This document shows, in pieces, positions 12,942-39,934 of a stretch of 64,000 nucleotides of DNA (position 1 is the first letter of the stretch; each line of letters opens with the position of its first letter). The translations under genes were made by a program, and so were the position numbers. The notes under the pieces are model-generated. The model saw only the letters and a list, made by a program, of their open reading frames with translations. It ran no database searches and had not been told where the DNA came from. The DNA is taken from NCBI GenBank assembly GCA_963705915.1, contig OY970126.1, positions 10,035 through 74,034 of the forward strand, read 5' to 3'. This stretch comes from an uncultured bacterium (lineage in GTDB: Bacteria > Patescibacteriota > Minisyncoccia > UBA6257 > 2-01-FULL-56-20).

Positions 12942-13934
12942 ATGAAGAGGATACTTATCACTGGGGGAGCTGGCTTTATTGGTCATCATTTTGTTGATTA
13001 TCTTTTGCGAAACACAGACTGGGAAATTGTTTTGCTCGAACGACTGAGTCATTCTGGTAATCTTAACCGCATATCGCAGCTCGACTCATATAAGGCTAAT
13101 CCTGATCGTGTCACTGTGATTCATCACGATCTTCGTTCCCCGGTCAATCAATATGTTACAAAAGGCATTGGCGACGTCCAATACATCGTACACTTCGCCG
13201 CATCTACGCATGTCGACCGGTCGATTGAGGATCCTATGTCGTTCGTGCTCGACAATGTAGTCGGTACCACGAATTTGCTTCAATTTGCACGAACCTTACC
13301 CCATCTTCAGTTAATGGTGAATTTCAGCACTGATGAGGTATTCGGCCCTGCGCCCGCAGGCGTGTACCATAAAGAAGATGCACCACACCATCCTTCAAAT
13401 GCCTATTCTGCAACGAAAAGCGGGCAGGAAAAAATAGCAGAAGCATTTTTTGTGACTTATAAATTTCCCGTGATTAATACGCATACGATGAATAATTTTG
13501 GCGAACGGCAGCATTCAGAAAAATTCATCCCGAAGCTTGTGAAAAATATTTTAGAAGGCAAGCCAATGCCGATCTATGCGACGGTAGAAAATGGCGTTGT
13601 GAAGGATATCGGTAGTCGCGTGTGGATGTATGCCCAGAATACGGCTGACGCGATTTATTTTTTGCTTCAAAATGCGACAGCAGGAGAGGAATATAATGTC
13701 ATCGGATTTGATGAGCTTAATTTGATTCAACTTGGCGACATGATAGCGGAAATTATTGGAAAGCCCCTTATAAAAGAATACGTTGGCTTCTATGGTGCGC
13801 GACCTGGTCACGATCGACGCTATGCACTCGACGGCACTAAGATGAAAAACCTTGGATGGAATCCGCCATCAAATCTTAAGGAGTCTTTGGAGAAAACGGT
13901 CAAATTTACCGTTGATCATCCAGAATGGCGATAA
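12942..13934 (+). CDS. rfbB: NAD-dependent sugar-nucleotide 4,6-dehydratase/epimerase (dTDP-glucose 4,6-dehydratase-like)
   Basis: Rossmann motif ILITGGAGFIGHHF; SDR-type YSATK active site. 330 aa. Confidence 0.7.
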   Translation: MKRILITGGAGFIGHHFVDYLLRNTDWEIVLLERLSHSGNLNRISQLDSYKANPDRVTVIHHDLRSPVNQYVTKGIGDVQYIVHFAASTHVDRSIEDPMSFVLDNVVGTTNLLQFARTLPHLQLMVNFSTDEVFGPAPAGVYHKEDAPHHPSNAYSATKSGQEKIAEAFFVTYKFPVINTHTMNNFGERQHSEKFIPKLVKNILEGKPMPIYATVENGVVKDIGSRVWMYAQNTADAIYFLLQNATAGEEYNVIGFDELNLIQLGDMIAEIIGKPLIKEYVGFYGARPGHDRRYALDGTKMKNLGWNPPSNLKESLEKTVKFTVDHPEWR

Positions 13935-14641
13935 AGGGCATCATCCTTGCGGGAGGATTGGGAACGCGTTTGCGGCCCCTGACTTACATTACCAATAAAC
14001 ACTTGCTTCCGATTTATAACAAGCCGATGATATTGTATCCGCTTGAAACGCTGAAACAGGCTGGCGTGACCGAAATCATGATCGTTTGTGGCAAGGAGCA
14101 CGGCGGAGGATTTATGAATTTTTTAGGATCCGGGAAAGATTACGGGCTAAAACTCTCTTATGCTTTACAGAACGGTTCCGGCGGGATTGCGGAAGCGCTC
14201 TCGCTTGCCGAGGATTTCGCAGCTAACTCAAAAGTCGCTGTCATTTTGGGCGACAATATTTACGAAGATAACTTTGTAGAGCACTTTTCAAAATTTGAGA
14301 AAGCTTCAGGAGCTATGGTTTTTTTGAAGCAGGTCGCTGATGCAAATCGCTTTGGTGTTGCCGAAGTGAGTGGCGAAAAAATCATCAAAGTTGAGGAAAA
14401 GCCTAAAACGCCAAAATCCAATTTGGCAGTCACTGGAATCTATCTCTACGACCCGGATGTATTCCAGAAAATCAAAACGTTGAAGCCTTCGGGGCGTGGG
14501 GAGCTTGAAATAACGGACATTCAAAATCTCTATATTAAGGAAGGAAAATTAAGTTTTGTTGAAGTCAGAGGATTTTGGTCTGACGCTGGGACGTTCGAAT
14601 CACTCTTAAGAACTGCAAATTGGATCGCTAAGAAAGATTAG
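13925..14641 (+). CDS. rfbA: Glucose-1-phosphate thymidylyltransferase, short form
   Basis: GIILAGGLGTRLRPLT nucleotidyltransferase signature. Overlaps rfbB by 10 nt. Confidence 0.8.
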   Translation: MAIKGIILAGGLGTRLRPLTYITNKHLLPIYNKPMILYPLETLKQAGVTEIMIVCGKEHGGGFMNFLGSGKDYGLKLSYALQNGSGGIAEALSLAEDFAANSKVAVILGDNIYEDNFVEHFSKFEKASGAMVFLKQVADANRFGVAEVSGEKIIKVEEKPKTPKSNLAVTGIYLYDPDVFQKIKTLKPSGRGELEITDIQNLYIKEGKLSFVEVRGFWSDAGTFESLLRTANWIAKKD

Positions 14642-15975
14642 TTAGTAGGTTCAATGAGGTTTTTGAGGGTGGTATAGGCGGGCTTAGGAGTACCATCATA
14701 GCGAAGAAGACCGAAAAAGTTTTCGTTAGTGATTGTTGATGTCCCAAGGTCCTGATAGCTGTACCAGAAAAAGGGTCCGGCCCACGGTAGTTGTTCAACC
14801 GAAGTTACTGCTTCGGAAAGCATTTGTGCTTGTAGAGCCTCAGTTACATGATCAGGCATTCCAGAGAAATTCGCTAAACTTCCATCGGTTGCCAGCGGCC
14901 CTGGTCCTCCAGTTGGTGCTCCGTATTCTGTGAGCCAAACTTTTTTTGCCGCGTCGCCATTCGCGAGCATAATACCCCTGATACTTTCAGGTGTGCTCGC
15001 CATTTGCGACCACGCGTTCCAAGGTTGGTAATTTAACGGTAGAGCTGGGAATGAATAAGGATGATCTCCGACGGCGTCAAAATAATTTTTCCCTCCATCT
15101 GCGTAGACGTCGGTCAAAAAATCCAACGGAGCGATGTTGCCATTGCTCGTTGCTGACGGCCCGAGACCTCCTGTTATAACTGTCGACGATGGCTCTACGC
15201 TTTTTATGGCTGCGTAAGTATCTTGAAGAAGTGTCGTATAGGCAGCCGGACTAGGCATGGGCTGCCATGATTCGGTTAAGTTCGGTTCATTCCATATTTC
15301 CCAAGCTGTAATTCCTTCTTGTCCGTAACGTTGGGCGGCCGCCTTGGCGAAAGCTGCAAAGTTTGCTGGATTACTTGGCGCACAGTTATAAGAATAACAG
15401 CCTGCTGGTCTTGCCCATGCTGGTGTATAATGCAATATCGCCAAGATTTTTAGATTCCTTGCATTTGCTGCTGCGACGATTGTATCGAAGAAGCCCCAAT
15501 TGTAATGAGCGCTGTCGGTCGGTTGAACGCCGCTCCACGGCAAGTCAACTCGTATCCAGCCGATGCCTAACGATGTAATATCGCTGAGTTCTTCACCAGG
15601 ATCACTTACGGCCATGAGATCGTCCGTCGCTATACCAAATTGATAGTTCAAACTGCTGCTGGCTGGGGTTATGATAGGAGCGGATGAAGTCGGGATACTC
15701 GTTGTTGGGGTGCTGATCGGTTGCGGATTGTCAATCGGAGGCAATATTGGAGAGATAGGAGGAGTCGTTGTTTGCTCACTTGTTGTACTCACCTGAGTAG
15801 AAGTGGCTTGAGTCGAAGACGAGTTGTTCGGTAGGGTGGTATTTGAATTATTGGAATTGGAACCATTCCAATCGATAGCCAAGCTTACCAAGCCCACTAT
15901 CAATATCGTTATTAACAATAAAAGAATCGCTCGCTGCGTATGCTTTTTTTGATCAGAAATGTATTTTGGTGACAT
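14638..15975 (-). CDS. Membrane-anchored glycoside hydrolase family 5
   Basis: TM anchor, S/T/P-rich linker, GH5 acid/base motif EIWNEPN and nucleophile motif WLTEYGAP. Confidence 0.75.
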   Translation of the reverse strand: MSPKYISDQKKHTQRAILLLLITILIVGLVSLAIDWNGSNSNNSNTTLPNNSSSTQATSTQVSTTSEQTTTPPISPILPPIDNPQPISTPTTSIPTSSAPIITPASSSLNYQFGIATDDLMAVSDPGEELSDITSLGIGWIRVDLPWSGVQPTDSAHYNWGFFDTIVAAANARNLKILAILHYTPAWARPAGCYSYNCAPSNPANFAAFAKAAAQRYGQEGITAWEIWNEPNLTESWQPMPSPAAYTTLLQDTYAAIKSVEPSSTVITGGLGPSATSNGNIAPLDFLTDVYADGGKNYFDAVGDHPYSFPALPLNYQPWNAWSQMASTPESIRGIMLANGDAAKKVWLTEYGAPTGGPGPLATDGSLANFSGMPDHVTEALQAQMLSEAVTSVEQLPWAGPFFWYSYQDLGTSTITNENFFGLLRYDGTPKPAYTTLKNLIEPTN

Positions 15976-16005
15976 AGACTCAATGAGCCCATGATACCAA
16001 ATGAA

Positions 16006-18180
16006 TTACAATCCTTGCAAAAGTAAACTCTTCATCGTTTGGTAAGCCGGCTTAGTGGTTCCATCGTAGCGAATCAAACCAAAAAAGTTTTGATTCGTGC
16101 TCGTGGAGGTTCCGAGGTCTTTATAGCTAAACCAGAACATCGGACCAGCCCAGCTATCTTGGCTAATTGAGGTGACTGCATCAGAAAGCATTTGACTCTG
16201 TAGTGCTTCTGTAACGTGATCGGGCATACCCGGGAAGCTATTTCCAGTGCCATCCGATGCGATATTTCCTGGACCACCGGTTGGTGCTCCGTATTCTGTA
16301 AGCCAGATCCGTTTGGTGGTATCGCCATTCGCAATCATGACACTCCGCAAGCTCGGTGTCGTTGCTGACATCTGCGACCATGCATTCCATGTTTGGAAAT
16401 TACTTGGGAGTGCGGGGAATGAATAAGGATGGAAACCTAAGGCGTCAAAGTAGGGCTCTGCGCCAGCCGCATACATTTGCGTTAAGAAAGTAATCGGGGC
16501 AATATCGCCACCCGTACTCGTTGCCGGAGCCAATCCACCGGATATTATGCCGGCAGCAGGATAAGCAGTTTTTATAGCCTTATAGCTATCTTTAAGGAGC
16601 GTCGTGTAGGCAGTGGCGCTTGCGGCCGGTTCCCATGAACCTGCCAGGTTTGGTTCATTCCAAATTTCCCAATCGATGACTCCTTTTGGAAAATATCTTG
16701 CAACCGCTGTTTCTGCGAAGTTGGCGAATTGTTGAGGGTTGACCGGCGGACATCGATCATCTTGAGCTGTACAATTGGGTGACATTGCCCATGATGGAGT
16801 GTAATCGACAACTGGTAGCGCTCTCAGCCCATGAGCGTTGAGTGCTGCAATAAAGCTATCAACGTAGCCCCAATTATAGGTTGACGAGTTATTAGGTTGG
16901 ACATGGTCCCACTGTATGTCGAACCGAACCCATCCAATGTCGAGCGATACGATGTCGTTAAGGTCATAGTTCAATGTAGCACTGCTCAATCCCATCAAAT
17001 TCTCACCGACTGATATGCCAAACCTGAGGTTTAGTCCGTTTTGTTGAGTAGTCACAATCACCGAACTTGAGATGGGAGAAGTATTTCCCGCTGCATCATA
17101 AGCAGAAACTGCAAATGAAAAAGTGGTACTTGGGGTAAGTCCCGCATCAGTAAAAGACGCCTCTGTAACGGTGCCGATACTGCTGCTTCCTTGATAAACA
17201 TTGTAACCAGCAACACCCACGTTATCTGTTGACGGAGTCCACGATAACGAAACAGAGGAAGTAGTGATTTTTACAATTGATGGCTCCCCAGGTGTCGAAG
17301 GGGGAGTCGTATCAGGAGGAGGCGGAGGACTGCCACCACCCCCACCCCCACCTCCACCTCCACCGCCCCCGCCCCCGCCCCCGCCTGAATAACCTCCACC
17401 CCCTCCGTATTGAGGAGTACTGTTAATAATTGTGATTTGCGAAGAAGACGCTGTCGAAGAAGGCGTAGAGACGGTTGTCGAATTCAGATCTGAATTTTCT
17501 GAAGGTAAAGAAGAATCCGTTTGCGCTTCTGTGTTCAGGCGCTCCATCTCCGCCCGACTTAGTGGTCCAAAGAAACCTGTTTGTGGAAGATCGTTTGTAC
17601 CTTGCCATTCTAAAACCGCGTTTGCGGTCATCTCTCCAAAAAATCCTGTCGGCTTAGTAAGCGAAAGATAATCATTCGCAATAAAAAATGATTGAAGTAT
17701 CGTTACATCCACACCGGAGTCGCCAATGGTGAGGTTGCGGGGATAGATATAACCGGTCGACGATGCGAAAGAGGCGACTGAAGTCGTCGTTCCTACTGAG
17801 GCTGTAGATATGGAGGTCGGCGTCTCTACGCCCGCAGTTTCATCGCCAGTGATTGCGGCGCGGCTCAACGGTCCAAAAAATCCTGTTGCAGGAAGCCCAT
17901 TCGATCCTTGCCATCCCGAAAGTGCGATTGCTGTGAGAGGGCCAAAAAATCCTGTCGGGTTTGGTACGTTAAGAAAGCCTTGTTTAATAAGGAAAGATTG
18001 TAGAGCGGATACATCTGCTCCGGTGCTTCCGACGGTGAGATTTCGTGTATATTCTTCTGAATTTGCTGCTGTCTGGGCTTTGGCTGAATAAAGTGGCAGA
18101 ATAGCAGTAATGGTAAGTGCTCCGATGAATAACAGAAAAACTGGGCGGAGCGTCCCTATGCTTCGGTTGCGTATACTCAT
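16006..18180 (-). CDS. Multidomain cell-surface protein: two peptidoglycan-binding (PG_binding_1-like) repeats, poly-Gly/Pro linker, FN3-like domain, C-terminal GH5 domain
   Basis: Repeated LQSFLIKQGFL...TGFFGPLT motifs. GGGGYSGGGGGGG..PPPPP tract. DWEIWNEPN and WLTEYGAP. The GH5 domain is paralogous to the 14638 gene. Confidence 0.75.
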   Translation of the reverse strand: MSIRNRSIGTLRPVFLLFIGALTITAILPLYSAKAQTAANSEEYTRNLTVGSTGADVSALQSFLIKQGFLNVPNPTGFFGPLTAIALSGWQGSNGLPATGFFGPLSRAAITGDETAGVETPTSISTASVGTTTSVASFASSTGYIYPRNLTIGDSGVDVTILQSFFIANDYLSLTKPTGFFGEMTANAVLEWQGTNDLPQTGFFGPLSRAEMERLNTEAQTDSSLPSENSDLNSTTVSTPSSTASSSQITIINSTPQYGGGGGYSGGGGGGGGGGGGGGGGGGSPPPPPDTTPPSTPGEPSIVKITTSSVSLSWTPSTDNVGVAGYNVYQGSSSIGTVTEASFTDAGLTPSTTFSFAVSAYDAAGNTSPISSSVIVTTQQNGLNLRFGISVGENLMGLSSATLNYDLNDIVSLDIGWVRFDIQWDHVQPNNSSTYNWGYVDSFIAALNAHGLRALPVVDYTPSWAMSPNCTAQDDRCPPVNPQQFANFAETAVARYFPKGVIDWEIWNEPNLAGSWEPAASATAYTTLLKDSYKAIKTAYPAAGIISGGLAPATSTGGDIAPITFLTQMYAAGAEPYFDALGFHPYSFPALPSNFQTWNAWSQMSATTPSLRSVMIANGDTTKRIWLTEYGAPTGGPGNIASDGTGNSFPGMPDHVTEALQSQMLSDAVTSISQDSWAGPMFWFSYKDLGTSTSTNQNFFGLIRYDGTTKPAYQTMKSLLLQGL
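17316..17410. repeat. Low-complexity GC-rich tract (CCCCCG hexamer repeats, GGN codons) encoding a Gly/Pro linker
   Basis: Simple-sequence repeat inside the 16006..18180 CDS. The 6-nt unit keeps the frame. Confidence 0.6.
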
Positions 18181-18230: not shown

Positions 18231-19487
18231 TTATAAGGAACGGCTGATCTTCCACCACATTTTGCGGAATATTCTGCGAAAATAGAGATGATCAATCAAA
18301 ATGATATTTTTTAATATCCTCTCTTTCCCGTTGTCATGAATATCGACTACGTTTTGAAGACCTCTCTCTATAGCTTTCTGCAATTCTGGATCGACTTTTT
18401 TTCTTTGTAGATCAGCTAAGTGATGTTTATAGGTAACTTCCGCACCGAATCCCGAGCCGGCGACTGCTTCGGTCACTAATTGGTAATCAAATGTATGCGG
18501 AAATGTTTTTGCTTCGTTCAATTTTCCAGCAATGCGAAGTTCTATCATTGTTCTTATGCACTTTTCACACTCTCCGCAGTTATATTCGCCTTTGAGATTC
18601 ATATAGCAGACTCGCAAATATTCCAACGCAAGAGGGGATTTTGCAATTTGCCATTCAACTTTATCAAGTCGCGTAGCTTCAGCCCCGTCATGTTCGAATG
18701 ATATCTGTTCAGTATTCCAATTTTTATCGATCTCCGGGCTTGAGCCCCATTTCACGTTTTGGGCGCTACTGAATGTTGCAGCGATATAAATCTTTTTGAA
18801 TCCGTTGCGGAGGCACAAGCCAACTCCCGCAAGGAGCCCTCCATGTGTGAAACCCGCATCAAGTATCGGCTCTATGAGATATTGGAAATTTGACTCAACT
18901 TCAACAACTTCTACGCCAGCTTTTTCTGCAATCTTCTCTACGGTTTTTTTGGTTGCCTTCCATAAACTTTCATTATCGAGATCAATATCGTTGCCGTTCA
19001 TCAAGATGAAATGAGTAATACGATCCTTCTCGTCGTGTTGATGTTTTAAATAGGTATAAAAAGAATCAACTCCTCCTGAAAAGAAAGTTGCTACTTTTTT
19101 CGGGTTGCCAGTATCTTGCTTGATCTCTTGCGCCTGGATCTTAATACGATGTAATTTTATTTCCCAATCCCATCCCGCCATCATATCCATAATCCGATGC
19201 ATCCCATCATATAATTCTTTAGAAACAGACCCATCGATAATCAAATCTTCATTGCGGAACATTGATGGAATAAGTAGCGCTGCAGCAAACGGGCTTCCGT
19301 CGCATACAAGATCGTCTTTATATTTTTTGTTGAACTTAAAATAAAGAGTATCCCAGCCGACAGGACGAATTTTACAGTCGGCGGAGAGCGTTATACTGTT
19401 CGAATCTTCTTTTAAATGGATGTTTTTTACTCGCATAGCATTTCCAGAAATCTTGTAATTTATATCAGAAAGTGTAGAATTTGGCAA
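18231..19487 (-). CDS. PP-loop ATP pyrophosphatase family protein with a QueC-like zinc motif; N-acetyl-sugar amidotransferase (WbuX/PseA)-like candidate
   Basis: SGGVDSFY PP-loop about 125 aa from the N-terminus. C-terminal C-x2-C-x2-C (NCGECEKCIRT). Embedded in a glycan gene cluster. Confidence 0.5.
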   Translation of the reverse strand: MPNSTLSDINYKISGNAMRVKNIHLKEDSNSITLSADCKIRPVGWDTLYFKFNKKYKDDLVCDGSPFAAALLIPSMFRNEDLIIDGSVSKELYDGMHRIMDMMAGWDWEIKLHRIKIQAQEIKQDTGNPKKVATFFSGGVDSFYTYLKHQHDEKDRITHFILMNGNDIDLDNESLWKATKKTVEKIAEKAGVEVVEVESNFQYLIEPILDAGFTHGGLLAGVGLCLRNGFKKIYIAATFSSAQNVKWGSSPEIDKNWNTEQISFEHDGAEATRLDKVEWQIAKSPLALEYLRVCYMNLKGEYNCGECEKCIRTMIELRIAGKLNEAKTFPHTFDYQLVTEAVAGSGFGAEVTYKHHLADLQRKKVDPELQKAIERGLQNVVDIHDNGKERILKNIILIDHLYFRRIFRKMWWKISRSL

Positions 19488-20752
19488 TGTGGCAAAATTT
19501 AAAGAATCTGTACGGAGATAGCCTGTTCCGCAACTCTTTTTACTTAATGCTCAATGCCGGCGTTCAAGGAGCGATCGGCTTTTTCTTTTGGCTTATATGC
19601 GCGAGGATATTCACTCCTAGCGATGTTGGGTTAGCGACATCGCTAATTTCCGCAGCTAGCCTTATGTCTGTTTTCAGCATGTTGGGCTTCAATAATGTCA
19701 TCGTTCGTTTTTTACCGACGTCAGGACGAAAGAATGAACAACTCTCAACAGCATTCGTGCTTACGAGCATTGCGAGCATCATAGCAGGCGCAGCTTTTTT
19801 ATTGTGGGCATTTTCTACTCATAATCCTATTGTCCAAACCACCCACCCGCACCTCCTGTCAGTCATTTTCATGGTTTACGTTCTTTTCATAACGCTCAAC
19901 GCCGTTCTTGAGGCCGCTTTCATCGCCTACAGATCAACGGTATACATCCTCATTAAAAATGCGATTCTGAGTTCTTTAAAAATCGTCTTTATTTTTTTTG
20001 TGGTTAGCATAGGCTATATCGGAATCGTAAATTCAGTAACAGGTGCTACAGCGATTGCTTTCCTTCTTGGATATGCGTGGCTCATAAATAAATTTAAGTA
20101 TCGGCCGATGTTGGTCGTCGATAAGGAGACGATTAGTGAGACCAAGAACTTCGCCATCGGAAATTATTTCGGAACCCTATTCGGCGTTTTGCCGACGATG
20201 GCGTTGACGCTCATCGTCGTTTCCAGGCTCGGAGCGCAAGACGCAGCTTTCTTTTATATACCATCAGTAATGGTGACTTTGCTTGGCATCATTCCGAGCT
20301 CAGTTTCGCAATCATTATTTGCAGAGGTTTCGCATGATGAAAATGGCTTTGCAAAGTTTTTTAAGAATGCATTGCGAAATATGTTCACACTTTTAATACC
20401 CGCAGTCGTTATCATGGCGGTTTTTGGGAAATTTATCCTGCGCTTCTTCGGCGCTGGCTACGCTGAAGCAGGTGCTGTGCCCCTCGCTATTCTTGCTGGT
20501 GCAAGCCTTATCAATGCTGCGAATATTTTGGGTGATACATTACTGAATATCAAAAAGATGGCAAGTTTCTATCTTTTTATGAACATACTGAACGCCGTCA
20601 TGGTTGTCGTGCCTGCTTATTTTGCGGCTCCGTATGGTCTGGCTGCCGTTGCGTGGAGCGCCCTGTTTGGTCAGGCTGTCACCGCAATAATATATATCAT
20701 TATGAATTGGCACCTTCTCGCACACTTAGACGAGATTCGTATTCCGACATAG
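19481..20752 (+). CDS. Polysaccharide biosynthesis protein / oligosaccharide flippase (Wzx, MOP superfamily)
   Basis: 423 aa with about 12 TM helices; typical Wzx N-terminal region. Confidence 0.7.
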   Translation: MAMWQNLKNLYGDSLFRNSFYLMLNAGVQGAIGFFFWLICARIFTPSDVGLATSLISAASLMSVFSMLGFNNVIVRFLPTSGRKNEQLSTAFVLTSIASIIAGAAFLLWAFSTHNPIVQTTHPHLLSVIFMVYVLFITLNAVLEAAFIAYRSTVYILIKNAILSSLKIVFIFFVVSIGYIGIVNSVTGATAIAFLLGYAWLINKFKYRPMLVVDKETISETKNFAIGNYFGTLFGVLPTMALTLIVVSRLGAQDAAFFYIPSVMVTLLGIIPSSVSQSLFAEVSHDENGFAKFFKNALRNMFTLLIPAVVIMAVFGKFILRFFGAGYAEAGAVPLAILAGASLINAANILGDTLLNIKKMASFYLFMNILNAVMVVVPAYFAAPYGLAAVAWSALFGQAVTAIIYIIMNWHLLAHLDEIRIPT

Positions 20753-28453: not shown

Positions 28454-28459
28454 GAAGAT

Positions 28460-30547: not shown

Positions 30548-30566
30548 GGGTTAGTCGCTTATCTCG

Positions 30567-31346: not shown

Positions 31347-31358
31347 GAGGGCGCGAGG

Positions 31359-31934: not shown

Positions 31935-33476
31935 ATGAATCCAGAACGTAAAAAAGAGCTTAAAATTTTCCTTGTCGCCCTCGCTGCTATCGTGGTGAGT
32001 TTTGCTGGCGGAGTTTTGTATTTGCGCGGGAACTCACTTGAGGGTAACGCCGGTCTCCTTGCCGACGTTTCGGGTGTTGTGTCGGCAGAAACATCATCCA
32101 CATCGCCTTCGCAGTCAATTCCGACGAGTTCCGCGTCGGTGATCCCGCTCGTGGCACCGGCCGCGACGAGCACGTCAAGCGGCGCGTCCGCTCAGTCGTC
32201 TTCCTCGTCCACGCAGCCTGCGCCTATTACGCCGAAGAAGTTGCCGTACGTAACGAAAACATTCGCTGCTGCGGATTGGCTCAATGATTGGGGCGATGTC
32301 TCATTCACCGGTGGCACGTTGAACTACGGTGCTTCTTCCGAAACTGCTGGCGGCGCAGAATATCTTTTGGGTTCAACGGCGTGGACGAATTACAATCTCC
32401 AGGCGAACGTCGATTGGGTGAATGGTGAAGCATTCGATATCGTTGCACGTGAATCGAACGACCAGAACTTTATCTACTGTGAATTTGGTGCCAACTTTAC
32501 AAACATCATTGAACGCGTCGCGGGCACTGACACCGAAATTGCTTCATCAAATAGTACGACTCAGGGGCCTGGTTCCGTTTCAGTGCTTGGCGTCCGCGTA
32601 TATGGCAACGACGTTGCTTGCACCGTTGGGGGCAGTGATGTGCTCACGGCAGCCGTAAAGACTGGTGAATTGTCAACGGGCGGCATTGGATTTATCTCTT
32701 GGGATCAAACAGACAATGTGAGCCAAATAAAGATTTTGGGTGTGAACGTCCAGCCACTTTCGACTGATAACATCGTTATCCCTCCGCCGGCGCCACCTGC
32801 GCCTCCGGCTCCCACGTCAACGGCCCAAACCTCAACGCCGCCAGCGCCGCCTCAGGCACCTCCCATCAGCCTCCCGTATTCCATCGGCACGTTTGGCAAT
32901 GGTTTTGCAAGCGACACCGCCTGGACCGATTGGCAGGGAACCGTCCTTCGCCCTGGTTCGGTGCTCACGATCGCATCGCCGGCTTCTGGTACGACCGGCG
33001 GCGCATTACTCGCGGGCAGTGACGCGTGGACTGATTTTACATTCTCCACAAACATCGATTGGAATTCCGGCGAGGCATTCGGCCTCATTGGCCATTACGT
33101 CGACGACAACGACTACGTGGTCTGCGGGTTTGACCAGGATATTCCGGGTAATATTCACATGACGATCCATGAGCTTGTGAATGGTAGCGATATCGACTTG
33201 GCAGATGGCGATATCCCGAACTATAACGAGGTTGGCGGCGCTGGCATAAACGTCGGTATGTCCGTTCAAGGTAATCAAGCAACGTGTGGATTTAATGGCT
33301 ATGTGATTTCCACGCTCGTTGCGAGCACTAAATTAACTGGACCGTTGCACGGTGAGATCGGTTTCGATACCTACGATCCAGCAAACGGCAACAGCGAGAT
33401 CACCGTCCATACCGTTGGCGTTGTCTCGCAGGCATACAACTTGGGCACGGATAACGTCCAGGATCCGGCGCAATAA
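31935..33476 (+). CDS. Secreted protein with two internally duplicated beta-sandwich-like domains joined by a PPAPPAPPAP linker
   Basis: Signal anchor. Repeated WTNYNLQANVDWVNGEAF / WTDFTFSTNIDWNSGEAF modules. Confidence 0.55.
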   Translation: MNPERKKELKIFLVALAAIVVSFAGGVLYLRGNSLEGNAGLLADVSGVVSAETSSTSPSQSIPTSSASVIPLVAPAATSTSSGASAQSSSSSTQPAPITPKKLPYVTKTFAAADWLNDWGDVSFTGGTLNYGASSETAGGAEYLLGSTAWTNYNLQANVDWVNGEAFDIVARESNDQNFIYCEFGANFTNIIERVAGTDTEIASSNSTTQGPGSVSVLGVRVYGNDVACTVGGSDVLTAAVKTGELSTGGIGFISWDQTDNVSQIKILGVNVQPLSTDNIVIPPPAPPAPPAPTSTAQTSTPPAPPQAPPISLPYSIGTFGNGFASDTAWTDWQGTVLRPGSVLTIASPASGTTGGALLAGSDAWTDFTFSTNIDWNSGEAFGLIGHYVDDNDYVVCGFDQDIPGNIHMTIHELVNGSDIDLADGDIPNYNEVGGAGINVGMSVQGNQATCGFNGYVISTLVASTKLTGPLHGEIGFDTYDPANGNSEITVHTVGVVSQAYNLGTDNVQDPAQ

Positions 33477-33517
33477 CCCTTGCGTTCTTTTGTGTCTTGT
33501 GGTATTCTGCGCACACT

Positions 33518-35152
33518 ATGGAAAGTATGAAAAAATCGCTTATCGCAACTGGTGTGGCCTTTAGCGCCGTTTTGGCGTTTAGCCTGTTTGGCCTCGGGAA
33601 CGGCGGAACGCTTGTCGCCCATGCCGATGGCGCCAATTTGATAGTGAATCCCAGCTTTGAACAGCAGAACGCAAACGGAACGCCGGTTGGTTGGGAGCAA
33701 GGTTCCTGGGGCGATGCCTCAAGTGCCGTCTTCACGTATCCAGTTGCGGGCGAGGATGATAACTTTGCCGCGCAGGTTTCGATCGGCACCTATAATGGCG
33801 TCGGTGAAGGCAACGGCGCGGCGGAATGGTATTTCGACAACGTGCCCGTGACGCCGAATACACTCTATGATTTTCATGATTGGTATCAGTCGAATGCAAA
33901 CAGTTATTTGATTGCGCAATGGACGCTCACCGACGGTTCGTTCGCGTATGATTCGATCACGACGCTTCCGCCGACGGCGAGCGGCACGTGGACCGAAACG
34001 CCGGATGAACTTTTCACGGCACCGGTGAACGCGGTTTCAGTCACGGTTTTGCATTTGCTCCAGAGCGCCGGTTCGCTCACAATCGACAATGCGTTTCTCG
34101 GCACGGCAACGCCGTCCGGCCAGAATACATTCCCGCAGGGGATGGTCACGCTCACGTTTGATGACGGCTACACCTCGCAATACAACAATGCGTTCCCGAT
34201 TTTGACGAAGGCCAATGTGCCGGGCACGTTCTATATCATTACGAGCCTCATCGACACCGCGCCGCCGGACAATCTTTTTGACGACTCAGGCGTTTCGACG
34301 AGCACAGTCACAACCACATCGACCGCCGAATGGGATGGCCTTTATACCGACCCCACATACCAGAACTACGTTTTGTCCGGCATGACGATGGCGACTGCGC
34401 CGGCCACGGTCCAGCTCCACTATCTTTTGAACGGCACGCAAACCACGCAGACGCTCGGCATGGTGCCGGCATCGGCGCCAAAAATGCAGAGCATCAATTT
34501 TATGTTGCCGACGAATAGCGACGGCACAACGGTGAGTCCGATCGACATCACGATGACGCTCACGAAGAAAGGAACGCTTGTGGTGAGCCAGCCGTCGCTT
34601 GTTGAATATCAAACCTATATGAACGTGAGTGATTTGCTCGCGATGCAGGCAGGCGGCGAAGAAATGGATTCGCACACGGAAACGCATCCTGACCTCACGG
34701 CTTTGACGGTTGCCGAAGACACGCAGGAAATCGCCGGTTCACGCACCGCGCTCATCAACTGGGGTCTCGCACCGGTTGACACGCTCGCGTATCCCTTCGG
34801 CGATTACAATACGACGATAGAAGGCATCGTTGCGGGCGCTGGCTATGCCGCTGCCCGTACCGTGGACGTTGGTTACAACGATACGGCGGCGAACGCCTAT
34901 GCTTTGAAGAGCTACAGCGTTGTGGAGTCAACCACGCTCCCGCAGGTTGAAACATGGATCAATACGGCGGCACAGAACCATTGGTGGCTCATCCTCACGT
35001 TCCACGATATCGATCCGGCAAATATTCTCCAGAAGAACGGCGAGATTTACGGCACGACGCCGACGATGCTCCAGCAAATCATTTCGTACTTGAAGCAGAA
35101 CAATATAGAGACGCCAAGCATGGATCAGGCGCTCTCGGTGTGGGGGAAGTAG
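33518..35152 (+). CDS. Secreted polysaccharide deacetylase (CE4) with an N-terminal carbohydrate-binding-like domain
   Basis: Signal peptide. NodB motifs LTFDDGY and HTETHPDL. Start taken at MESMKK (the track ORF begins at 33497). Confidence 0.75.
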   Translation: MESMKKSLIATGVAFSAVLAFSLFGLGNGGTLVAHADGANLIVNPSFEQQNANGTPVGWEQGSWGDASSAVFTYPVAGEDDNFAAQVSIGTYNGVGEGNGAAEWYFDNVPVTPNTLYDFHDWYQSNANSYLIAQWTLTDGSFAYDSITTLPPTASGTWTETPDELFTAPVNAVSVTVLHLLQSAGSLTIDNAFLGTATPSGQNTFPQGMVTLTFDDGYTSQYNNAFPILTKANVPGTFYIITSLIDTAPPDNLFDDSGVSTSTVTTTSTAEWDGLYTDPTYQNYVLSGMTMATAPATVQLHYLLNGTQTTQTLGMVPASAPKMQSINFMLPTNSDGTTVSPIDITMTLTKKGTLVVSQPSLVEYQTYMNVSDLLAMQAGGEEMDSHTETHPDLTALTVAEDTQEIAGSRTALINWGLAPVDTLAYPFGDYNTTIEGIVAGAGYAAARTVDVGYNDTAANAYALKSYSVVESTTLPQVETWINTAAQNHWWLILTFHDIDPANILQKNGEIYGTTPTMLQQIISYLKQNNIETPSMDQALSVWGK

Positions 35153-35156
35153 TTAG

Positions 35157-36323
35157 TTATTGCGCCGTTGACGTGGCCACCGCTGCCTGGAACGCGGCGA
35201 GTGCTGCCGGGTCGGAATTCACGAGCCAATCCTGCTCTTTATTTTGATTGAACCAAATCCAGCCGGCGATGGGATATTCTTGCATACTCGTTGTGAGCGC
35301 GTCGGTTATCCATGCGGCTTTTTGCGGACCCTCGGCTGAAGCCATCGAGAATATATAGATGGGCTTGTCATAGATTTGGAGCTGGCCTATCGCTGGTGCA
35401 AAAACGTCGGCGAACGATTGCCAGGGATCGCCAAAGTTGAACCCGTCCACGCCGACGTAGTCCACGTACGCGCTGCCCGGATAGTAGACCGCGATGCTGT
35501 TTGAGGCGGTGTCCGGTTCTGAAACGTTGTTTACGTCCCATGCAAATTTTACGTTCGCCGTTGGAGATGAGCCCGCAACGCCCGCTGCCTCAAAAATATT
35601 GTAGACATGCTGCCATGCGGCAATGAACGAACTCGGGCTGTTGCCGTTCACGGTGCCATCCCACGGATCCCAGTTGCCGTTCATCTCTTCGAATGGCACG
35701 AGAATAATCGGGCCGTTGTAGGCCTTCGCCGCTGCGGCGAACGATTGGAGATAATGATCCCACGTGCCGCCCGAGATGCTCGCATAGTTGTAGTTCGGTT
35801 CCGTAAGGTTGCCCGATCCGTCGCTCGGCTCCCAGAAGATGACGAGCGTTTTATGCTCGCCCGCAACGGCCTGCTCGAAGTTCGATGGGAATGCGCCGTT
35901 GTTGCCCCAGCCGACGAACACAGCCACCATATCCATCTGTTGGCCGACGAGCGCTTCAAAGTTTGCATCGTCGCTCGGCGTGTCGCCGGCGAATGCGCCC
36001 CAAGAAACGGTATAGGGTGCGACCGTTGCCGGGGGGATGTTGGTTGACGTTGCGAACGGGGTGGTCGTTGTTGAAATGTCGTTTACGCCGAGCGGGCTTC
36101 CGGACACGGACGCTGTGCCCGTGGATGATGCTTCGGCGGACACTGAAGATGACGCCGAAGACGATGCGATGAGTTGTGCGATGTCGGGCGGAAGCGAGCT
36201 TGAACTTGTCGAGGCACTTGCACCAGAAAAGACACCCGGTGGCGCAGAAATGAGCGTAAAAATAATGAGACCTCCCACGAGGACGATGGCAACGATGCAA
36301 ACAAAAAGCAAGAACTTTTTCAT
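35157..36323 (-). CDS. Secreted glycoside hydrolase, GH26 (beta-mannanase)-like
   Basis: TM/signal anchor, Ser-rich linker, FWEPSDG and VPFEEMNGNWDPW motifs resembling the GH26 acid/base region. Confidence 0.5.
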   Translation of the reverse strand: MKKFLLFVCIVAIVLVGGLIIFTLISAPPGVFSGASASTSSSSLPPDIAQLIASSSASSSVSAEASSTGTASVSGSPLGVNDISTTTTPFATSTNIPPATVAPYTVSWGAFAGDTPSDDANFEALVGQQMDMVAVFVGWGNNGAFPSNFEQAVAGEHKTLVIFWEPSDGSGNLTEPNYNYASISGGTWDHYLQSFAAAAKAYNGPIILVPFEEMNGNWDPWDGTVNGNSPSSFIAAWQHVYNIFEAAGVAGSSPTANVKFAWDVNNVSEPDTASNSIAVYYPGSAYVDYVGVDGFNFGDPWQSFADVFAPAIGQLQIYDKPIYIFSMASAEGPQKAAWITDALTTSMQEYPIAGWIWFNQNKEQDWLVNSDPAALAAFQAAVATSTAQ

Positions 36324-36362
36324 ATCTTTTTAATAATACTTAATAATACCGCAACTGGCCTG

Positions 36363-36761
36363 TTATTCGCAGGGATGAACGCGGGTCATCTCGACGATCT
36401 TTGAGGCAGCCGTTGAGGCGTAGGCTACGTTCGTAGTCCCTTGGAATGCTTCGTGCAGCAATTGCCAGCCGACGATGCTGATCATGATGATGAGGGTCGT
36501 CATGATGGAAAAAGCGAGATAGCGGCGGGCCGGGCTCGTGAATATGGGAGGCGGCAACGGGATGGAAATCGGCGCGAGCGTGGGATATTTTTTGAGTTGT
36601 TTGATGATCTGCATGTATCCGGCGACCGGACCGTATTGCGGCCGGCGCAAGACGACCCACTGGATGCGAACCCAAAGTTTTTTGAACTGGTCGCGGATCC
36701 AGCTATAGACGATGATGCCGACGTGGAGGATGAGGGACAAGCCCCCGGGAAGGATGTTCAT
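36363..36761 (-). CDS. Small membrane protein, DUF2304-like, commonly found downstream of GT2 genes
   Basis: 132 aa with 3 TM helices. Position immediately 3' of a GT2 gene. Confidence 0.45.
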   Translation of the reverse strand: MNILPGGLSLILHVGIIVYSWIRDQFKKLWVRIQWVVLRRPQYGPVAGYMQIIKQLKKYPTLAPISIPLPPPIFTSPARRYLAFSIMTTLIIMISIVGWQLLHEAFQGTTNVAYASTAASKIVEMTRVHPCE

Positions 36762-36764
36762 GGA

Positions 36765-37793
36765 TTACATATGGATACGCTGGGGTTGGTGCCAGGACAT
36801 ATCGCGTTCTTTAAAGAATATCTCGCGCACGAACCGTTCGATAAAAACCCAAAGGTTTACGAACATGAGAAAGAGATACGCCGGAGAATAAAAGAAAATG
36901 TCGGGACGTTTGCTTTCAATGGAGGCATAGAGGCCTGAGAGCAGGGTGAATCCCAGTGAGAATACAAGGGTATAGATGAAGTAACGGATATTGATGAATG
37001 GCGTGACAAGAAGGATGACCGAAAAAATAATGCCTTCGGTATACATGAGCGTGAGTTCGAGTGCCGCAAGCGGTGATTCGATCACCCAGAAGTGTTTCAC
37101 GAGATTCTGCCATCCGCCGGCATACCAGCGGCGCACCTGGGCGATATAGGAACCCAATGTTGGCGGATCTTGCGTGTAGACCATCGCTTTTTTATCGTAG
37201 GCAATCTTCAAATTATTTTTATGGAATTTGAAGGTGAAGTCGAGATCTTCGGCGACGGTGTCGTGGTCGAACGTGATATATTTTCTGAAAAGCTCGGTGC
37301 GGAATGCGCCCGAGCATCCTGGAATGACGAACAAAAAGTTGAGATACGATTGCGCACGCTTATGAATTTCCTGGCTCACGCTGTATTCCATCTGGCGCAA
37401 CGCGGTGAGCCAGTTGTAGCGGATGCTTCGGATGCCGCCGCAGACGGCGGCAACCTGCGGGTCGGCAAAGTCGCGCTCGATGTATTCAACGTAGCGCGGG
37501 TCGAGAATGGTGTCGCCGTCGGTGGCGATGAAGATGTCGGTGCGGATAAAGGGGATTGCGCTCTCTTGTACGAAACTTTTATTACCCAAATTCTTTTCGA
37601 GGGCGAGCACTTCCACCTCGAGGCCAAAGCTCCGGGCGATCGCAACGGTGTCGTCGGTCGAGGCATCGTCCACGACGAGGATTTGATCGAGCTTTCTCGT
37701 CTGGGCAAGGCACGATTCGAGGCATGACCGAATGCCCGCGGATTCGTTATGAGCAGGGATGAGGATGCCGATGGTGAGGCGTTTTTCCGGCAT
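36765..37793 (-). CDS. GT2 glycosyltransferase with a C-terminal TM region
   Basis: ILIPAHNE, VVDDASTDDT and ATDGDT (DxD) motifs. C-terminal TM helices. Confidence 0.8.
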   Translation of the reverse strand: MPEKRLTIGILIPAHNESAGIRSCLESCLAQTRKLDQILVVDDASTDDTVAIARSFGLEVEVLALEKNLGNKSFVQESAIPFIRTDIFIATDGDTILDPRYVEYIERDFADPQVAAVCGGIRSIRYNWLTALRQMEYSVSQEIHKRAQSYLNFLFVIPGCSGAFRTELFRKYITFDHDTVAEDLDFTFKFHKNNLKIAYDKKAMVYTQDPPTLGSYIAQVRRWYAGGWQNLVKHFWVIESPLAALELTLMYTEGIIFSVILLVTPFINIRYFIYTLVFSLGFTLLSGLYASIESKRPDIFFYSPAYLFLMFVNLWVFIERFVREIFFKERDMSWHQPQRIHM

Positions 37794-37849
37794 GGTTGAG
37801 TGACAGAGTTATACCAGAAAATTATTGAAAAAGCAAGTGTTTTTGCATA

Positions 37850-37880
37850 AAAAAACGCCACTCAATAATGAGTGGCGGTT
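37850..37880 (-). terminator. Terminator hairpin GCCACTCA..TGAGTGGC preceded by A7 (on the plus strand)
   Basis: Overlaps the stop codon of the 37862..38281 gene. Confidence 0.5.
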
Positions 37881-38281
37881 GTGCGGGGGTCTTCCACGCG
37901 GATAGGGCCTTCGGCACATCCAGGGACGATGTGGATTTCCGGGTTCGCGTCGATAATTTCCCGGAATCGGCGGTCGGCAATTGTTTTGCTGGAGAATATC
38001 TCCCACCTGAGGTTGAACATGTTGGGCGTAGCGAGGGCGGCGTCCGGATCAAAGAAGGGAGCGCTATTCCTTGCGTAGGGTTTGAAAACGAGTTCGGCGT
38101 CTTGCAGGTTGGCAGCCTGGATGCGGATAATCCATGTGCCGGTGTGATGCTCATCGAACAAACAAATGTAATACCGTTCAGCGTGCATATCCATGCCCGT
38201 ACTCCTTTGTATATAATATTGAGAATCTGCTCGCATTATAGTCTTTCGTTGATGCGAATTCAAGAGAGCCTCACGCATCAT
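37862..38281 (-). CDS. Hypothetical soluble protein downstream of the processive GT2 synthase
   Basis: 139 aa. Start overlaps the synthase stop by 11 nt. Confidence 0.4.
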   Translation of the reverse strand: MMREALLNSHQRKTIMRADSQYYIQRSTGMDMHAERYYICLFDEHHTGTWIIRIQAANLQDAELVFKPYARNSAPFFDPDAALATPNMFNLRWEIFSSKTIADRRFREIIDANPEIHIVPGCAEGPIRVEDPRTTATHY

Positions 38282-39671
38282 TCACGCCTTGACGTTGCCA
38301 TCGTTGCCACGTAGCTTCGCGCCGCGTGACGACGGCCCAGAGTGATTTGAGCATCGCATTGTGTTCAACGTACGTTGATATATAGAAGAGAAGCCAGCCG
38401 ATCGGCGCCGCGAGAATGAACGAAGCTTTGCGCGCCTCTTCGCGCTCGCTGAAGAGCTGTACGATGAATATCGAACCAACAACAATCATGCCCGATAAAA
38501 ATATGGAGAAGTTGTTGGTCCAGAAAGAATAGAAATAGAGGAAGATGATAAAGAAGACTTCAACGGCCAGCTGCACGTCGCCAAAAATGGCGACGGGGAA
38601 AATCACCCAGCTCACCAGTTTGTTCATTGTCCCTTCGTTTGAAAAAAATAATGAGCGGTATTTCCAGAATGTCTGCACGCGGCCTTGTCGCCAGCGGGTT
38701 CGCTGGTTCATGAGGCCGCGGATGTCGCTGGCCCCCTCGGTGTAGACGATGGCGTCGGACGCATACACAATTTTCATACCGGCCATTTGGATGCGGATCG
38801 TGAGTTCGAAGTCTTCGGTGATCACATCGGTCGTGTAGCCGCCGAGCTCTTCGAACACTTCGCGGCGGAAGGCTCCTGCTGCGCCTCCGATAATGTAGAT
38901 GGTATTGAAGAGTGAATCGGCTTTCTTGCAGTAGAAGGAGAACATATATTCGAGGTGCTGGATCGTTCCGACGAGCGTGCGGGTGTTGCCGATCTTCACG
39001 TTGCCGACCGCGGCCATCACATTCGGATCGGCAAACCATTGCACAAAATTTTCAATGGCTGTCGGGGCGACATAGCAGTCGGCATCGATCGATATGATGA
39101 TTTCGCCGGACGACAAGCCGACTCCTGCGTTGAGCGCCCGGGCTTTGCCGCCGTTTTCTTTATATTTATAGACGATGGATTTTCCCGGATGAAGATTGGC
39201 TTCATTTTTATATTCTTTCAAGAACTGGCGTATAATGTTGTCTGATTCGTCGGTCGAGCCGTCGTTTACGATCACGACTTCGATGGACTCGTAGGTGTTC
39301 TCAAGCACCGAGCGGATCGTTGCGAGGATACCGACCGCTTCGTTCCAGCAAGGGATAATAACCGACACATTCGGGCGGTAGTTCGCAATGACATCGCGAA
39401 GCTTGCTCTCGCGCCTGGCCTTCACGATGTCGTACACCGGTGAGAGCATCATGTACACAAAATATTTCACGAGAAGAACCGTGGCGAAGATGGCGATCAC
39501 AAAACGTACCGTCGGGAACGTGGTGTGGTCGTTGCTATGCAAAAAGAACGTCGAGGCAATGATGCCGAGCGTGACGATATACAAAAAAATGTAAACCGCT
39601 ATTTTGACCCCGTTGTGCTTTTTTTCTTTGTATGGTTCCATCGGCCATGGTTTTAATGGTTGATACACCAA
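38271..39671 (-). CDS. Processive family-2 glycosyltransferase (PgaC/IcaA/NodC/cellulose-synthase-like polysaccharide synthase)
   Basis: 2 N-terminal and 3-4 C-terminal TM helices. Motifs VIIPCWNE, DGSTDES, DAD, TED and the processivity motif QRTRWRQG (QxxRW). Confidence 0.8.
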   Translation of the reverse strand: MVYQPLKPWPMEPYKEKKHNGVKIAVYIFLYIVTLGIIASTFFLHSNDHTTFPTVRFVIAIFATVLLVKYFVYMMLSPVYDIVKARRESKLRDVIANYRPNVSVIIPCWNEAVGILATIRSVLENTYESIEVVIVNDGSTDESDNIIRQFLKEYKNEANLHPGKSIVYKYKENGGKARALNAGVGLSSGEIIISIDADCYVAPTAIENFVQWFADPNVMAAVGNVKIGNTRTLVGTIQHLEYMFSFYCKKADSLFNTIYIIGGAAGAFRREVFEELGGYTTDVITEDFELTIRIQMAGMKIVYASDAIVYTEGASDIRGLMNQRTRWRQGRVQTFWKYRSLFFSNEGTMNKLVSWVIFPVAIFGDVQLAVEVFFIIFLYFYSFWTNNFSIFLSGMIVVGSIFIVQLFSEREEARKASFILAAPIGWLLFYISTYVEHNAMLKSLWAVVTRREATWQRWQRQGVNDA

Positions 39672-39934
39672 AGCGCATATCGTCCGGTGATATTCGACGC
39701 GGCGATGCAGGCGAGGAAAAGAGTGACCACCTTATACGACGCGTTGAATGGCGTGACGATGAGATACCATACGGTGGCGATCATGCCGAGGCAGAATACA
39801 ATAAACCCAATGGTGAGCGCCACGTGTTTTGCGACGAGTATCGCATACGCTCCGCGCGCCGCTGCCGGCTTTTCTGCCGGACGCGTGCGGGGAGCGTATA
39901 CAACACGAGGTTGTTCGAGCATGTCAGTTTTCAC
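39653..39934 (-). CDS. Small 2-TM membrane protein, translationally coupled upstream of the GT2 synthase
   Basis: 93 aa. 19-nt overlap with the synthase start. Confidence 0.4.
   Translation of the reverse strand: MKTDMLEQPRVVYAPRTRPAEKPAAARGAYAILVAKHVALTIGFIVFCLGMIATVWYLIVTPFNASYKVVTLFLACIAASNITGRYALWCINH

Follow-up and report, generated by a model that had tools for sequence, protein, structure and literature searches.

Several synthase-dependent glycan systems resemble the genes considered here. The icaADBC operon of Staphylococcus, responsible for polysaccharide intercellular adhesin, or poly-β-1,6-N-acetyl-D-glucosamine (PIA/PNAG), brings together a GT2 glycosyltransferase, a small protein with two transmembrane (TM) segments and a secreted CE4 deacetylase, and has no outer-membrane components. 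In pgaABCD of Escherichia coli, PgaC-PgaD is activated by cyclic di-GMP (c-di-GMP), and PgaB carries both a CE4 and a GH153 domain. NodC, whose partner NodB is a deacetylase, and the class I hyaluronan synthases (HAS) and chitin synthases share the QxxRW processive GT2 fold. In the monoderm Streptomyces, MatAB makes PNAG with a GT2 fused to an extracellular CE4, together with an accessory protein of unknown fold (PMC5972031). Here we analyse a 64,000-nucleotide stretch of contig OY970126.1 (the window) from an uncultured bacterium of the Patescibacteria, or Candidate Phyla Radiation (CPR), in which the interval at 12.9-39.9 kb encodes two QxxRW synthases of 342 and 466 amino acids (GT2_342 and synth466), two CE4 proteins and several proteins related to glycoside hydrolases (Table 1). 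This interval is three independent neighbouring glycan units, not the single 27-kb glycan locus proposed in an earlier note on this DNA, and its conserved synthase and CE4 core belongs to GT2_342.

The three units extend over 12.9-31.8 kb (unit 1), 31.9-37.8 kb (unit 2, hereafter module B, with GT2_342) and 37.9-39.9 kb (unit 3, hereafter module A, with synth466). We consider the 27 kb to be composite because of the GC profile, the hairpins and the relatives, which share only the neighbourhood of the 466-aa synthase. The GC content is 0.41-0.47 over 12-32 kb and 0.51-0.56 on either side, and minus-strand terminator-like hairpins set apart a helix-turn-helix (HTH) gene, module A and module B. 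The synthase neighbourhood has its closest relatives in two metagenome-assembled genomes (MAGs), one uncultured (L001/L002, 77% identity) and one of Candidatus Paceibacterota (L003, 70%). Both retain the HTH gene, the small TM gene, the 466-aa synthase and the GGDEF-EAL gene, and the latter also retains the DUF2378 gene, but nothing downstream of the 466-aa synthase is common to the window and either relative. Gene content was taken from the listing of open reading frames (ORFs) together with Pfam and NCBIfam scans, TM segments were assigned by hydropathy, and equivalog status was judged by the curated NCBIfam cut-offs. Since FtsA and FtsZ are encoded at 2-4.7 kb, the region is chromosomal. 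The low-GC unit 1 is probably a horizontally acquired island, and a tRNA scan for a boundary marker returned none. Homologs of both synthases and of the secreted CE4 come overwhelmingly from Parcubacteria/Paceibacterota and other CPR, and to judge by these relatives the chromosome is probably that of a Paceibacterota-like CPR bacterium.

The assignment of the CE4 core rests on a comparison of the two synthase families. A scan of metagenomes with the GT2_342 family alignment yielded 80 loci, which 90% dereplication reduced to 74 clusters. Among the 27 dereplicated loci with at least 5 kb of downstream sequence, a deacetylase gene follows the GT2 within 5 kb in 24, its product being either similar to the secreted CE4 of module B (CE4sec) or of the DUF2334 type. 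No CE4 was found within 8-10 kb of the 466-aa synthase in any of eight independent contexts (24/27 vs 0/8, Fisher p = 7e-6). These contexts were taken by exact-protein context look-ups; a genome scan with the synthase alone, which used over-specific patterns, gave only two close loci and unrelated GT2s. Because of this difference in linkage, we attribute the core to GT2_342. The earlier idea of a synthase paired with a CE4 is therefore sound as to the pairing, which is real and conserved, and mistaken as to the partner, which had most likely been taken to be synth466. In the 19 loci flanked by 5 kb or more on each side, the deacetylase is present in 17, a GH26-like gene in 13 and a GH18 gene in two (GH26-like or GH18, 15/19). 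The usual order in the relatives is the GT2, a small 2-TM protein and a secreted CE4, mirroring icaA-icaD-icaB. In one of them (L021), the GH26-like gene, the 342-aa GT2, a small ORF and the CE4 lie on one strand, with 42-46% identity to the window proteins.

The QxxRW and catalytic motifs are invariant in the alignment of the GT2_342 family, which is widespread in CPR at ~50% identity. According to hydropathy and the AlphaFold2 (AF2) model, GT2_342 has no N-terminal TM pair and thus departs from the 2+3 TM topology of PgaC/IcaA. It scores 121.4 bits against the PgaC_IcaA equivalog TIGR03937 (cut-off 422.3), which is still its best-scoring curated model, ahead of CelA. The AF2 model (pLDDT 90.8) fits HAS with Foldseek TMq values of 0.78-0.82, BcsA with 0.71 and PcManGT with 0.64. 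The adjoining orf132 seems to be a regular member of the module: a hidden Markov model made from the ORFs downstream of GT2_342 homologs in other loci matched it alone among 534 window ORFs (E 1.6e-8). Its likeness to IcaD/PgaD, and that of the small TM protein of module A, is one of position and topology only. The secreted 513-aa protein at the other end of the unit (sec513) has weak homologs immediately upstream of GT2_342 homologs in three loci, and may be an accessory of module B, which begins at about 31.9 kb with this protein or at about 33.5 kb with CE4sec.

Two CE4 proteins, one cytoplasmic and one secreted, had been predicted for the interval, and both are present. CE4sec contains a beta-rich N-terminal domain, and its CE4 domain is interrupted by an insert of ~115 aa. 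The residues D222, D223, H393, H397 and H503, which comprise the catalytic Asp base, the metal-binding Asp-His-His triad and the catalytic His acid, are kept in 55-61 of 61 homologs. The CBM-like domain attributed to it gave no Pfam match at E<=1 in the window protein; the N-terminal domain is CBM_4_9-like in relatives, and many of these do carry CBM_4_9. CE4sec reaches 29.9 bits against the IcaB model TIGR03933 (cut-off 248) and 58 against the PgaB model TIGR03938 (cut-off 322), and its weak matches in the PDB include PgaB, BpsB, IcaB and PplD.

The GH26-like protein aligns over a full-length domain (residues 108-383) with the lichenase CtLic26A (2bv9, Clostridium thermocellum CelH; E 1.2e-40). 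The acid/base residue, Glu109 in CtLic26A, is kept in the motif FEEMNGNW. The column of the nucleophile, Glu222 in CtLic26A, holds serine (IFSMASAE), and the protein accordingly lacks one of the two glutamates of a retaining clan GH-A enzyme. It further differs from CtLic26A in its membrane anchor and in its genetic linkage with a synthase and a deacetylase. The serine is found in the window protein and in 28/28 syntenic CPR homologs (L021-L101). When the window protein and its 150 best representatives in an exhaustive search are taken together, 103 carry it; the Glu-type sequences mostly score below ~205 bits, with just three above. The invariant serine, combined with the retained acid/base glutamate, argues against simple decay of the catalytic site. 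We suppose that the protein may act by substrate-assisted catalysis on a 2-acetamido sugar, by transglycosylation, or as a binding protein. No literature on a nucleophile-less GH26 clade was found.

Some of the loci around GT2_342 homologs follow a variant arrangement, in which a TM-anchored DUF2334/CE4-like deacetylase takes the place of CE4sec. In several of them the N-terminus of the small TM protein is fused to the DUF2334 domain, and in one scanned example (L025) the DUF2334 protein carries LysM. A GH18 gene with the motif DG-x-D-x-D-x-E often follows, instead of the CE4sec and GH26 pair. The GH18 protein of the window belongs to the same subfamily as the GH18s beside GT2_342 homologs, with phmmer matches in L045, L062, L025, L086 and L064. 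It lies ~26 kb from module B and outside any module.

Based on these comparisons, GT2_342 and orf132 would polymerise an N-acetylhexosamine (HexNAc) chain, most likely of N-acetylglucosamine (GlcNAc), from a UDP-sugar and thread it across the membrane. The anchored CE4sec would then partially de-N-acetylate the chain on the outside, and the GH26-derived protein may bind, cleave or transglycosylate it. The identity of the sugar, its linkage, the export route and the role of the small TM protein are inferred from the genes. HexNAc is favoured because of the deacetylase linkage, the LysM and GH18 domains in the variant loci, the nearest family models and the missing nucleophile. GH18 and GH26 are families that act on β-1,4 or β-1,3 linkages according to CAZy. 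Given the GH18 and LysM of the variant loci and the association with GH26, a β-1,4 linkage seems at least as likely as β-1,6. The authors of the MatAB study were likewise unable to separate the two linkages by sequence (PMC5972031).

Judged by its genes, module B works like the HexNAc systems of the ica, pga and Mat types but is not a member of them, because it misses the equivalog cut-offs, its GT2 is without the N-terminal TM pair and its small TM protein shows no relation to IcaD/PgaD. IcaC and PgaA have no counterpart in it, and the place of GH153 is taken by a GH26-derived protein. With icaADBC it shares the gene order seen in its relatives and the absence of outer-membrane components, and PgaC_IcaA is the top curated model for both GT2s of the window. 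It differs in the added GH26-like partner and in CE4sec, which is double the size of IcaB and has the extra N-terminal domain and the insert. The combination of a CE4 with a glycoside hydrolase-type protein recalls the domains of PgaB. As in MatAB, the GT2 is intracellular, the CE4 coupled with it is extracellular, and an accessory protein accompanies them. Here, in contrast, the GT2 and the CE4 are separate genes, the variants fuse the deacetylase to the small TM protein and not to the GT2, and the system is known from genes alone. The likeness to NodC/NodB and to the hyaluronan and chitin synthases extends to the fold, with Chlorella virus and Xenopus HAS as best structural matches, to weak Chitin_synth Pfam matches, to the GH18 and LysM of the variant loci and to the deacetylase partner. 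Unlike NodB, however, this deacetylase is extracellular, and the module holds no gene for UDP-GlcA supply.

Module A is built around the synthase to which the processive QxxRW description of the earlier note most likely applies. Synth466 has the motif QRTRW and two N-terminal and three C-terminal TM helices by both hydropathy and AF2, in agreement with the PgaC/IcaA topology, and the catalytic motifs DGSTDES (DGS..D), DADC and TED, together with QRTRW, are invariant in its family alignment. It aligns over nearly its full length with PgaC_IcaA, its best curated model, at 181.3 bits, followed by the XrtG-associated GT, NodC and CelA models. Against NodC (TIGR04242, cut-off 550), synth466 and GT2_342 reach 85.7 and 58.2 bits, respectively. 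The AF2 model of synth466 (pLDDT 85, pTM 0.85) fits Chlorella virus HAS best (TMq 0.66-0.70), then PcManGT, BcsA and chitin synthases. The models of both GT2s thus superpose on membrane-embedded processive synthases (HAS TMq 0.66-0.82, BcsA). A DPM/GtrB-like identity, which would have refuted the earlier note, was rejected for the two QxxRW synthases; the 259-aa GT2 of unit 1 is the only one of that type. In the source annotations both families are named 'PgaC' or 'poly-beta-1,6-N-acetyl-D-glucosamine synthase', although neither reaches the curated cut-off. A few 342-aa GT2s are even annotated as 'peptidoglycan-N-acetylglucosamine deacetylase'.

A homolog of the small TM protein abuts or overlaps the synthase start in 7/7 CPR contexts (the window, L001/L002, L003, L016, L018, L102 and L103). 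The family also occurs in Ktedonobacteria, and in Ktedonospora formicarum (L017) the small TM homolog is the C-terminal domain of an upstream 341-aa protein, with a GH18 gene (11676-12539) immediately downstream of the synthase homolog. Four relatives have, directly downstream of the synthase, a ~520-aa partner that combines a TM segment and a DUF11-like Ig domain with a C-terminal domain of ~290 aa; it has no match among solved structures, and the Ig domain is the sole domain found. This partner is absent from the window (tblastn, none at E<=0.01) and from the 70% relative, and orf139, orf132 and sec513 are unrelated to it. The HTH, DUF2378 and GGDEF-EAL neighbours have 50-74% identity to those of the two closest relatives. 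Because HTH and GGDEF-EAL genes adjoin module A, this context suggests c-di-GMP-linked control; no PilZ domain is present, and the link comes from gene context. A PAS-GGDEF gene at 50438-51283, 8 kb beyond the GGDEF-EAL gene, adds to the c-di-GMP genes of the region. Module A resembles pgaABCD in its 2+3 TM synthase, its small membrane protein and the nearby GGDEF-EAL gene. It differs in that the small gene is upstream, not downstream, and has no PgaD similarity, in the absence of a PgaA porin and PgaB, and in the lack of a linked CE4 in the eight contexts of its family. Module A would probably be a second synthase with its own small membrane subunit, for a different or differently regulated polymer.

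Unit 1 bears out a further part of the earlier note, namely the pyruvyl transferase, the Wzx-like flippase and the RfbB-like and RfbA-like genes. RmlC and RmlD are absent from the ORFs scanned, which leaves two of the four genes of the dTDP-rhamnose set, both below the equivalog cut-off. The five GT4/GT2 enzymes listed earlier are likewise present, with GT2_342 (QVRRW), the second QxxRW GT2, most likely counted among them. Of the hydrolases once proposed, the GH18 and GH26-like proteins stand, and the 'GH5' pair does not. Its best PDB match is PslG (5bx9, GH39; E 1.9e-24, phmmer), and the Pfam GH5 matches are weak, one of them below cut-off. Peptidoglycan-binding domains had been ascribed to two hydrolases; only the second PslG-like paralog has PG_binding_1, in two copies. 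In this protein the linker between the PG_binding_1 repeats and the fn3 and PslG-like domains is a run of ~24 glycines (GGGGYSGGGG...) followed by a Pro-rich stretch. The possible amidation of the glycan has as its sole basis the SGGxDS PP-loop motif of the 418-aa protein, which matches tRNA_Me_trans and QueC weakly and no Pfam or NCBIfam family significantly.

The minus-strand genes at 24367-31817 overlap or nearly abut, forming an operon, in which the ends of the cytoplasmic CE4 gene overlap those of the adjacent GT4 genes. Because of this translational coupling within the low-GC island, the cytoplasmic CE4 is assigned to a separate island pathway and, on gene arrangement, to neither synthase. 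The content of unit 1 fits the assembly of a heteroglycan on a lipid (polyprenyl) carrier. The AglJ/DPM-like GT2 and several GT4/GT2 enzymes would build the glycan on the carrier, the cytoplasmic CE4 would de-N-acetylate an intermediate by an HfsH-like logic, the pyruvyl transferase would decorate the product and the Wzx-like protein would flip it. The 13-TM DUF2206/PMT_2 protein may transfer or polymerise the glycan, and the PslG-like hydrolases may trim it. Psl and other Wzx-Wzy-type exopolysaccharide loci are similar in their PslG-like hydrolases, Wzx-like flippase, GT4/GT2 enzymes and pyruvyl transferase. The second, Wzx-type heteroglycan of the earlier note is thus plausible from domain content. 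It speaks against it that no Wzy/O-antigen ligase, initiating phosphoglycosyl transferase (Bac_transf, Glycos_transf_4) or chain-length regulator was detected in the unit 1 ORFs scanned. The 13-TM protein and the AglJ-like GT2 may be stand-ins for Wzy and the initiating transferase.

The island also holds a set of glycosylation genes with an archaeal look, comprising the AglJ-like GT2, the 13-TM DUF2206/PMT_2 protein, the weakly DUF1616-like TM protein and the Wzx-like (AglR-like) flippase, a combination reminiscent of the archaeal Agl N-glycosylation clusters. The set may have been acquired from archaea, or it may point to a lipid-monophosphate pathway of the Agl type. The island differs from the Agl system in having no detected AglB-type oligosaccharyltransferase, and its matches to both the Psl and the Agl systems are all sub-equivalog.

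Table 1. Features of the three units and their surroundings; positions are those of the window unless a locus is named
Feature	Position	Strand	Description
GH18 protein	8091-9341	+	N-terminal anchor; motif NGIDIDFE; PF00704 E 1.6e-22
Unit 1: RfbB-like NDP-sugar 4,6-dehydratase	12942-13934	+	TIGR01181 256 bits, cut-off 365
Unit 1: short RfbA-like thymidylyltransferase	13925-14641	+	TIGR01207 243 bits, cut-off 361
Unit 1: secreted PslG-like hydrolase, first paralog	14638-15975	-	GH39/clan GH-A; N-terminal TM segment
Unit 1: secreted PslG-like hydrolase, second paralog	16006-18180	-	2x PG_binding_1, Gly run, fn3; N-terminal TM
Unit 1: 418-aa soluble protein	18231-19487	-	PP-loop motif FFSGGVDSFY; C-terminal CxxC pair; between hydrolases and flippase
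Unit 1: Wzx-like flippase	19481-20752	+	~11 TM (hydropathy); PF13440 41.6 bits, above cut-off 23
Unit 1: polysaccharide pyruvyl transferase	20700-22001	-	PF04230 E 5e-28; WcaK and CsaB models below cut-offs
Unit 1: 13-TM DUF2206/PMT_2 protein	22001-24370	-	candidate GT-C-type transferase or polymerase; PF09971 66 bits
Unit 1: double GT4	24367-26598	-	Pfam
Unit 1: cytoplasmic CE4	26595-27293	-	232 aa; no TM or signal peptide; DD / HTMTH / H motifs in translation
Unit 1: GT4	27293-28453	-	Pfam
Unit 1: GT4-GT2 fusion	28460-30547	-	Pfam
Unit 1: AglJ/DPM-like GT2	30567-31346	-	259 aa; TIGR04182 AglJ 207 bits, cut-off 325
Unit 1: 152-aa TM protein	31359-31817	-	weakly DUF1616-like; TM segments
Module B, possible accessory: sec513	31935-33476	+	513 aa, secreted; two repeated domains; no Pfam match
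Module B: CE4sec	33497-35152	+	551 aa; N-terminal TM/signal anchor; PF01522 E 7.5e-22 in two stretches; database start probably 33518
Module B: GH26-like protein	35157-36323	-	N-terminal TM and Ser/Thr-rich linker; PF02156 26.9 bits, cut-off 20.2
Module B: orf132	36363-36761	-	132 aa, 2 TM; N-terminal motif P-x-G-L-S-L-I-x-H; IcaD position
Module B: GT2_342	36765-37793	-	minimal processive-type GT2; DDAS..D (DDASTDD), DGD, AED, QVRRW; 3 C-terminal TM
Intrinsic-terminator-like hairpin	37856-37877	-	9 bp stem then T7; between orf139 (module A side) and GT2_342
orf139	37862-38281	-	139 aa; uncertain as real gene; in the place of the ~520-aa partner; no homolog in relatives, no domain
Module A: synth466	38271-39671	-	PgaC/IcaA-topology GT2; 466 aa from TTG start; database form 456 aa from ATG at 39641
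Module A: small TM protein	39653-39934	-	93 aa; ends 11 nt before synth466 ATG; overlaps from TTG start
Terminator-like hairpin	40040-40025	-	between HTH gene and 93-aa small TM gene
Tandem-HTH protein	40126-40536	-	conserved module A neighbour
DUF2378 protein	40614-41189	+	matched in L003 only
GGDEF-EAL protein	41102-42724	+	conserved in window, L001/L002 and L003
~520-aa partner of 466-aa synthases	L001 11347-12912; L016 11396-12949; L018 11323-12984; L103 9437-10978		
Variant-type module B loci	L025, L036, L040, L045, L046, L062, L067, L086, L093, L097, L100		ORF directly downstream of GT2

Taken as a whole, we lean slightly towards the explanation that combines a heteroglycan island (unit 1), an ica-like module B and a second synthase in module A. 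A bolder version is tentative and, in its full form, unlikely: that module B is a CPR-wide minimal synthase system for a partly de-N-acetylated, chitosan- or PNAG-like GlcNAc polymer used in episymbiont surface attachment, that the serine-type GH26 uses substrate-assisted (2-acetamido) catalysis or transglycosylates, and that module A is a second, c-di-GMP-controlled synthase of CPR and Ktedonobacteria. Several observations weigh against the ica-like reading of module B. None of the equivalog thresholds for PgaC/IcaA, NodC, IcaB or PgaB is reached, and in the Pfam and NCBIfam models neither orf132 nor the small TM protein of module A has IcaD or PgaD similarity. The window CE4 is on the opposite strand and convergent with the GH26-like gene, whereas most relatives have it immediately after the small TM gene. 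The closest known relative of the GH26-like protein is a β-1,3-1,4-glucanase, not a HexNAc-active enzyme, and CE4 enzymes also include O-acetyl esterases. PG_binding_1 on some CE4sec relatives fits peptidoglycan as substrate or anchor, and the QxxRW cellulose-synthase-like fold is also found in the non-processive PcManGT.

In a rival reading, CE4sec, the GH26-like protein and GH18 modify or scavenge cell-wall or host glycans, for example as a peptidoglycan GlcNAc deacetylase, GT2_342 acts non-processively on a lipid or wall acceptor, and the synteny reflects a shared envelope function. The PG_binding_1 domains, present on several CE4sec relatives, the LysM of the DUF2334 variant and the anchored, wall-associated appearance of the GH18 subfamily agree with it; PcManGT shows that a minimal fold of this kind can be non-processive, and recycling of host biomass has been proposed for CPR (bioRxiv 10.1101/2022.04.20.488981). 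Nevertheless, we regard it as doubtful: the order of GT2, 2-TM protein and secreted deacetylase is kept in ~89% of informative loci, a peptidoglycan deacetylase would not normally require a GT2 of its own, and GT2_342, with its QxxRW invariant across the family, fits HAS better than PcManGT. The lichenase match of the GH26-like domain, together with BcsA among the structural matches of GT2_342, would instead be expected if module B made an O-acetylated β-glucan, mixed-linkage or cellulose-like, with the CE4 as an O-acetyl esterase and the GH26-like protein in lichenase-type processing. CE4 does include acetylxylan esterases (CAZy). We find this quite improbable, given that the nucleophile glutamate is missing throughout the clade, which makes classical lichenase chemistry unlikely, that the module ORFs include no MBOAT-, Acyl_transf_3- or IcaC-type O-acetyltransferase, that the variant loci use HexNAc-associated GH18, LysM and DUF2334, and that PgaC/IcaA, ahead of CelA, are the best family models of the GT2. 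PNAG, to which the earlier note likened the product, is not established by the PgaC_IcaA, IcaB and PgaB scores given above, and a single β-1,6-GlcNAc system centred on synth466 and served by both CE4s and the nearby hydrolases appears very improbable. Synth466 has PgaC_IcaA as its top model over the full length, a PgaD/IcaD-like small TM partner and a GGDEF-EAL gene nearby, the N-terminal motif region of CE4sec matches PgaB, BpsB and IcaB structures, and, with the usual ~520-aa partner missing here, proximity might let module A use module B enzymes. Yet synth466 remains far below the equivalog cut-off, its family has no linked CE4 in the eight contexts, a terminator-like hairpin stands between it and module B, the cytoplasmic CE4 sits inside a GT4 operon 11 kb away with a different GC content, and no GH153- or GH20-type PNAG hydrolase is present.

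The CPR, or Patescibacteria, account for much of bacterial diversity and are mostly attached to host cells; to our knowledge, their surface chemistry is almost unknown. We found nothing relevant in the literature on PgaC, PNAG, chitin synthase or deacetylase in CPR, and module B is apparently undescribed in the literature searched. Both GT2 families are highly conserved, with 50-60% identity across many CPR lineages. GT2_342 and its fixed partners, the 2-TM protein, the secreted deacetylase and the nucleophile-less GH26, therefore make a testable candidate for a CPR surface or adhesion polymer. The large GH26 clade with an invariant change from glutamate to serine, whose genes accompany a synthase and a deacetylase, is an unusual natural experiment in glycosidase mechanism. 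If the serine-type GH26 does prove to be substrate-assisted or transglycosylating, the mechanism would be new to GH26 and to clan GH-A.

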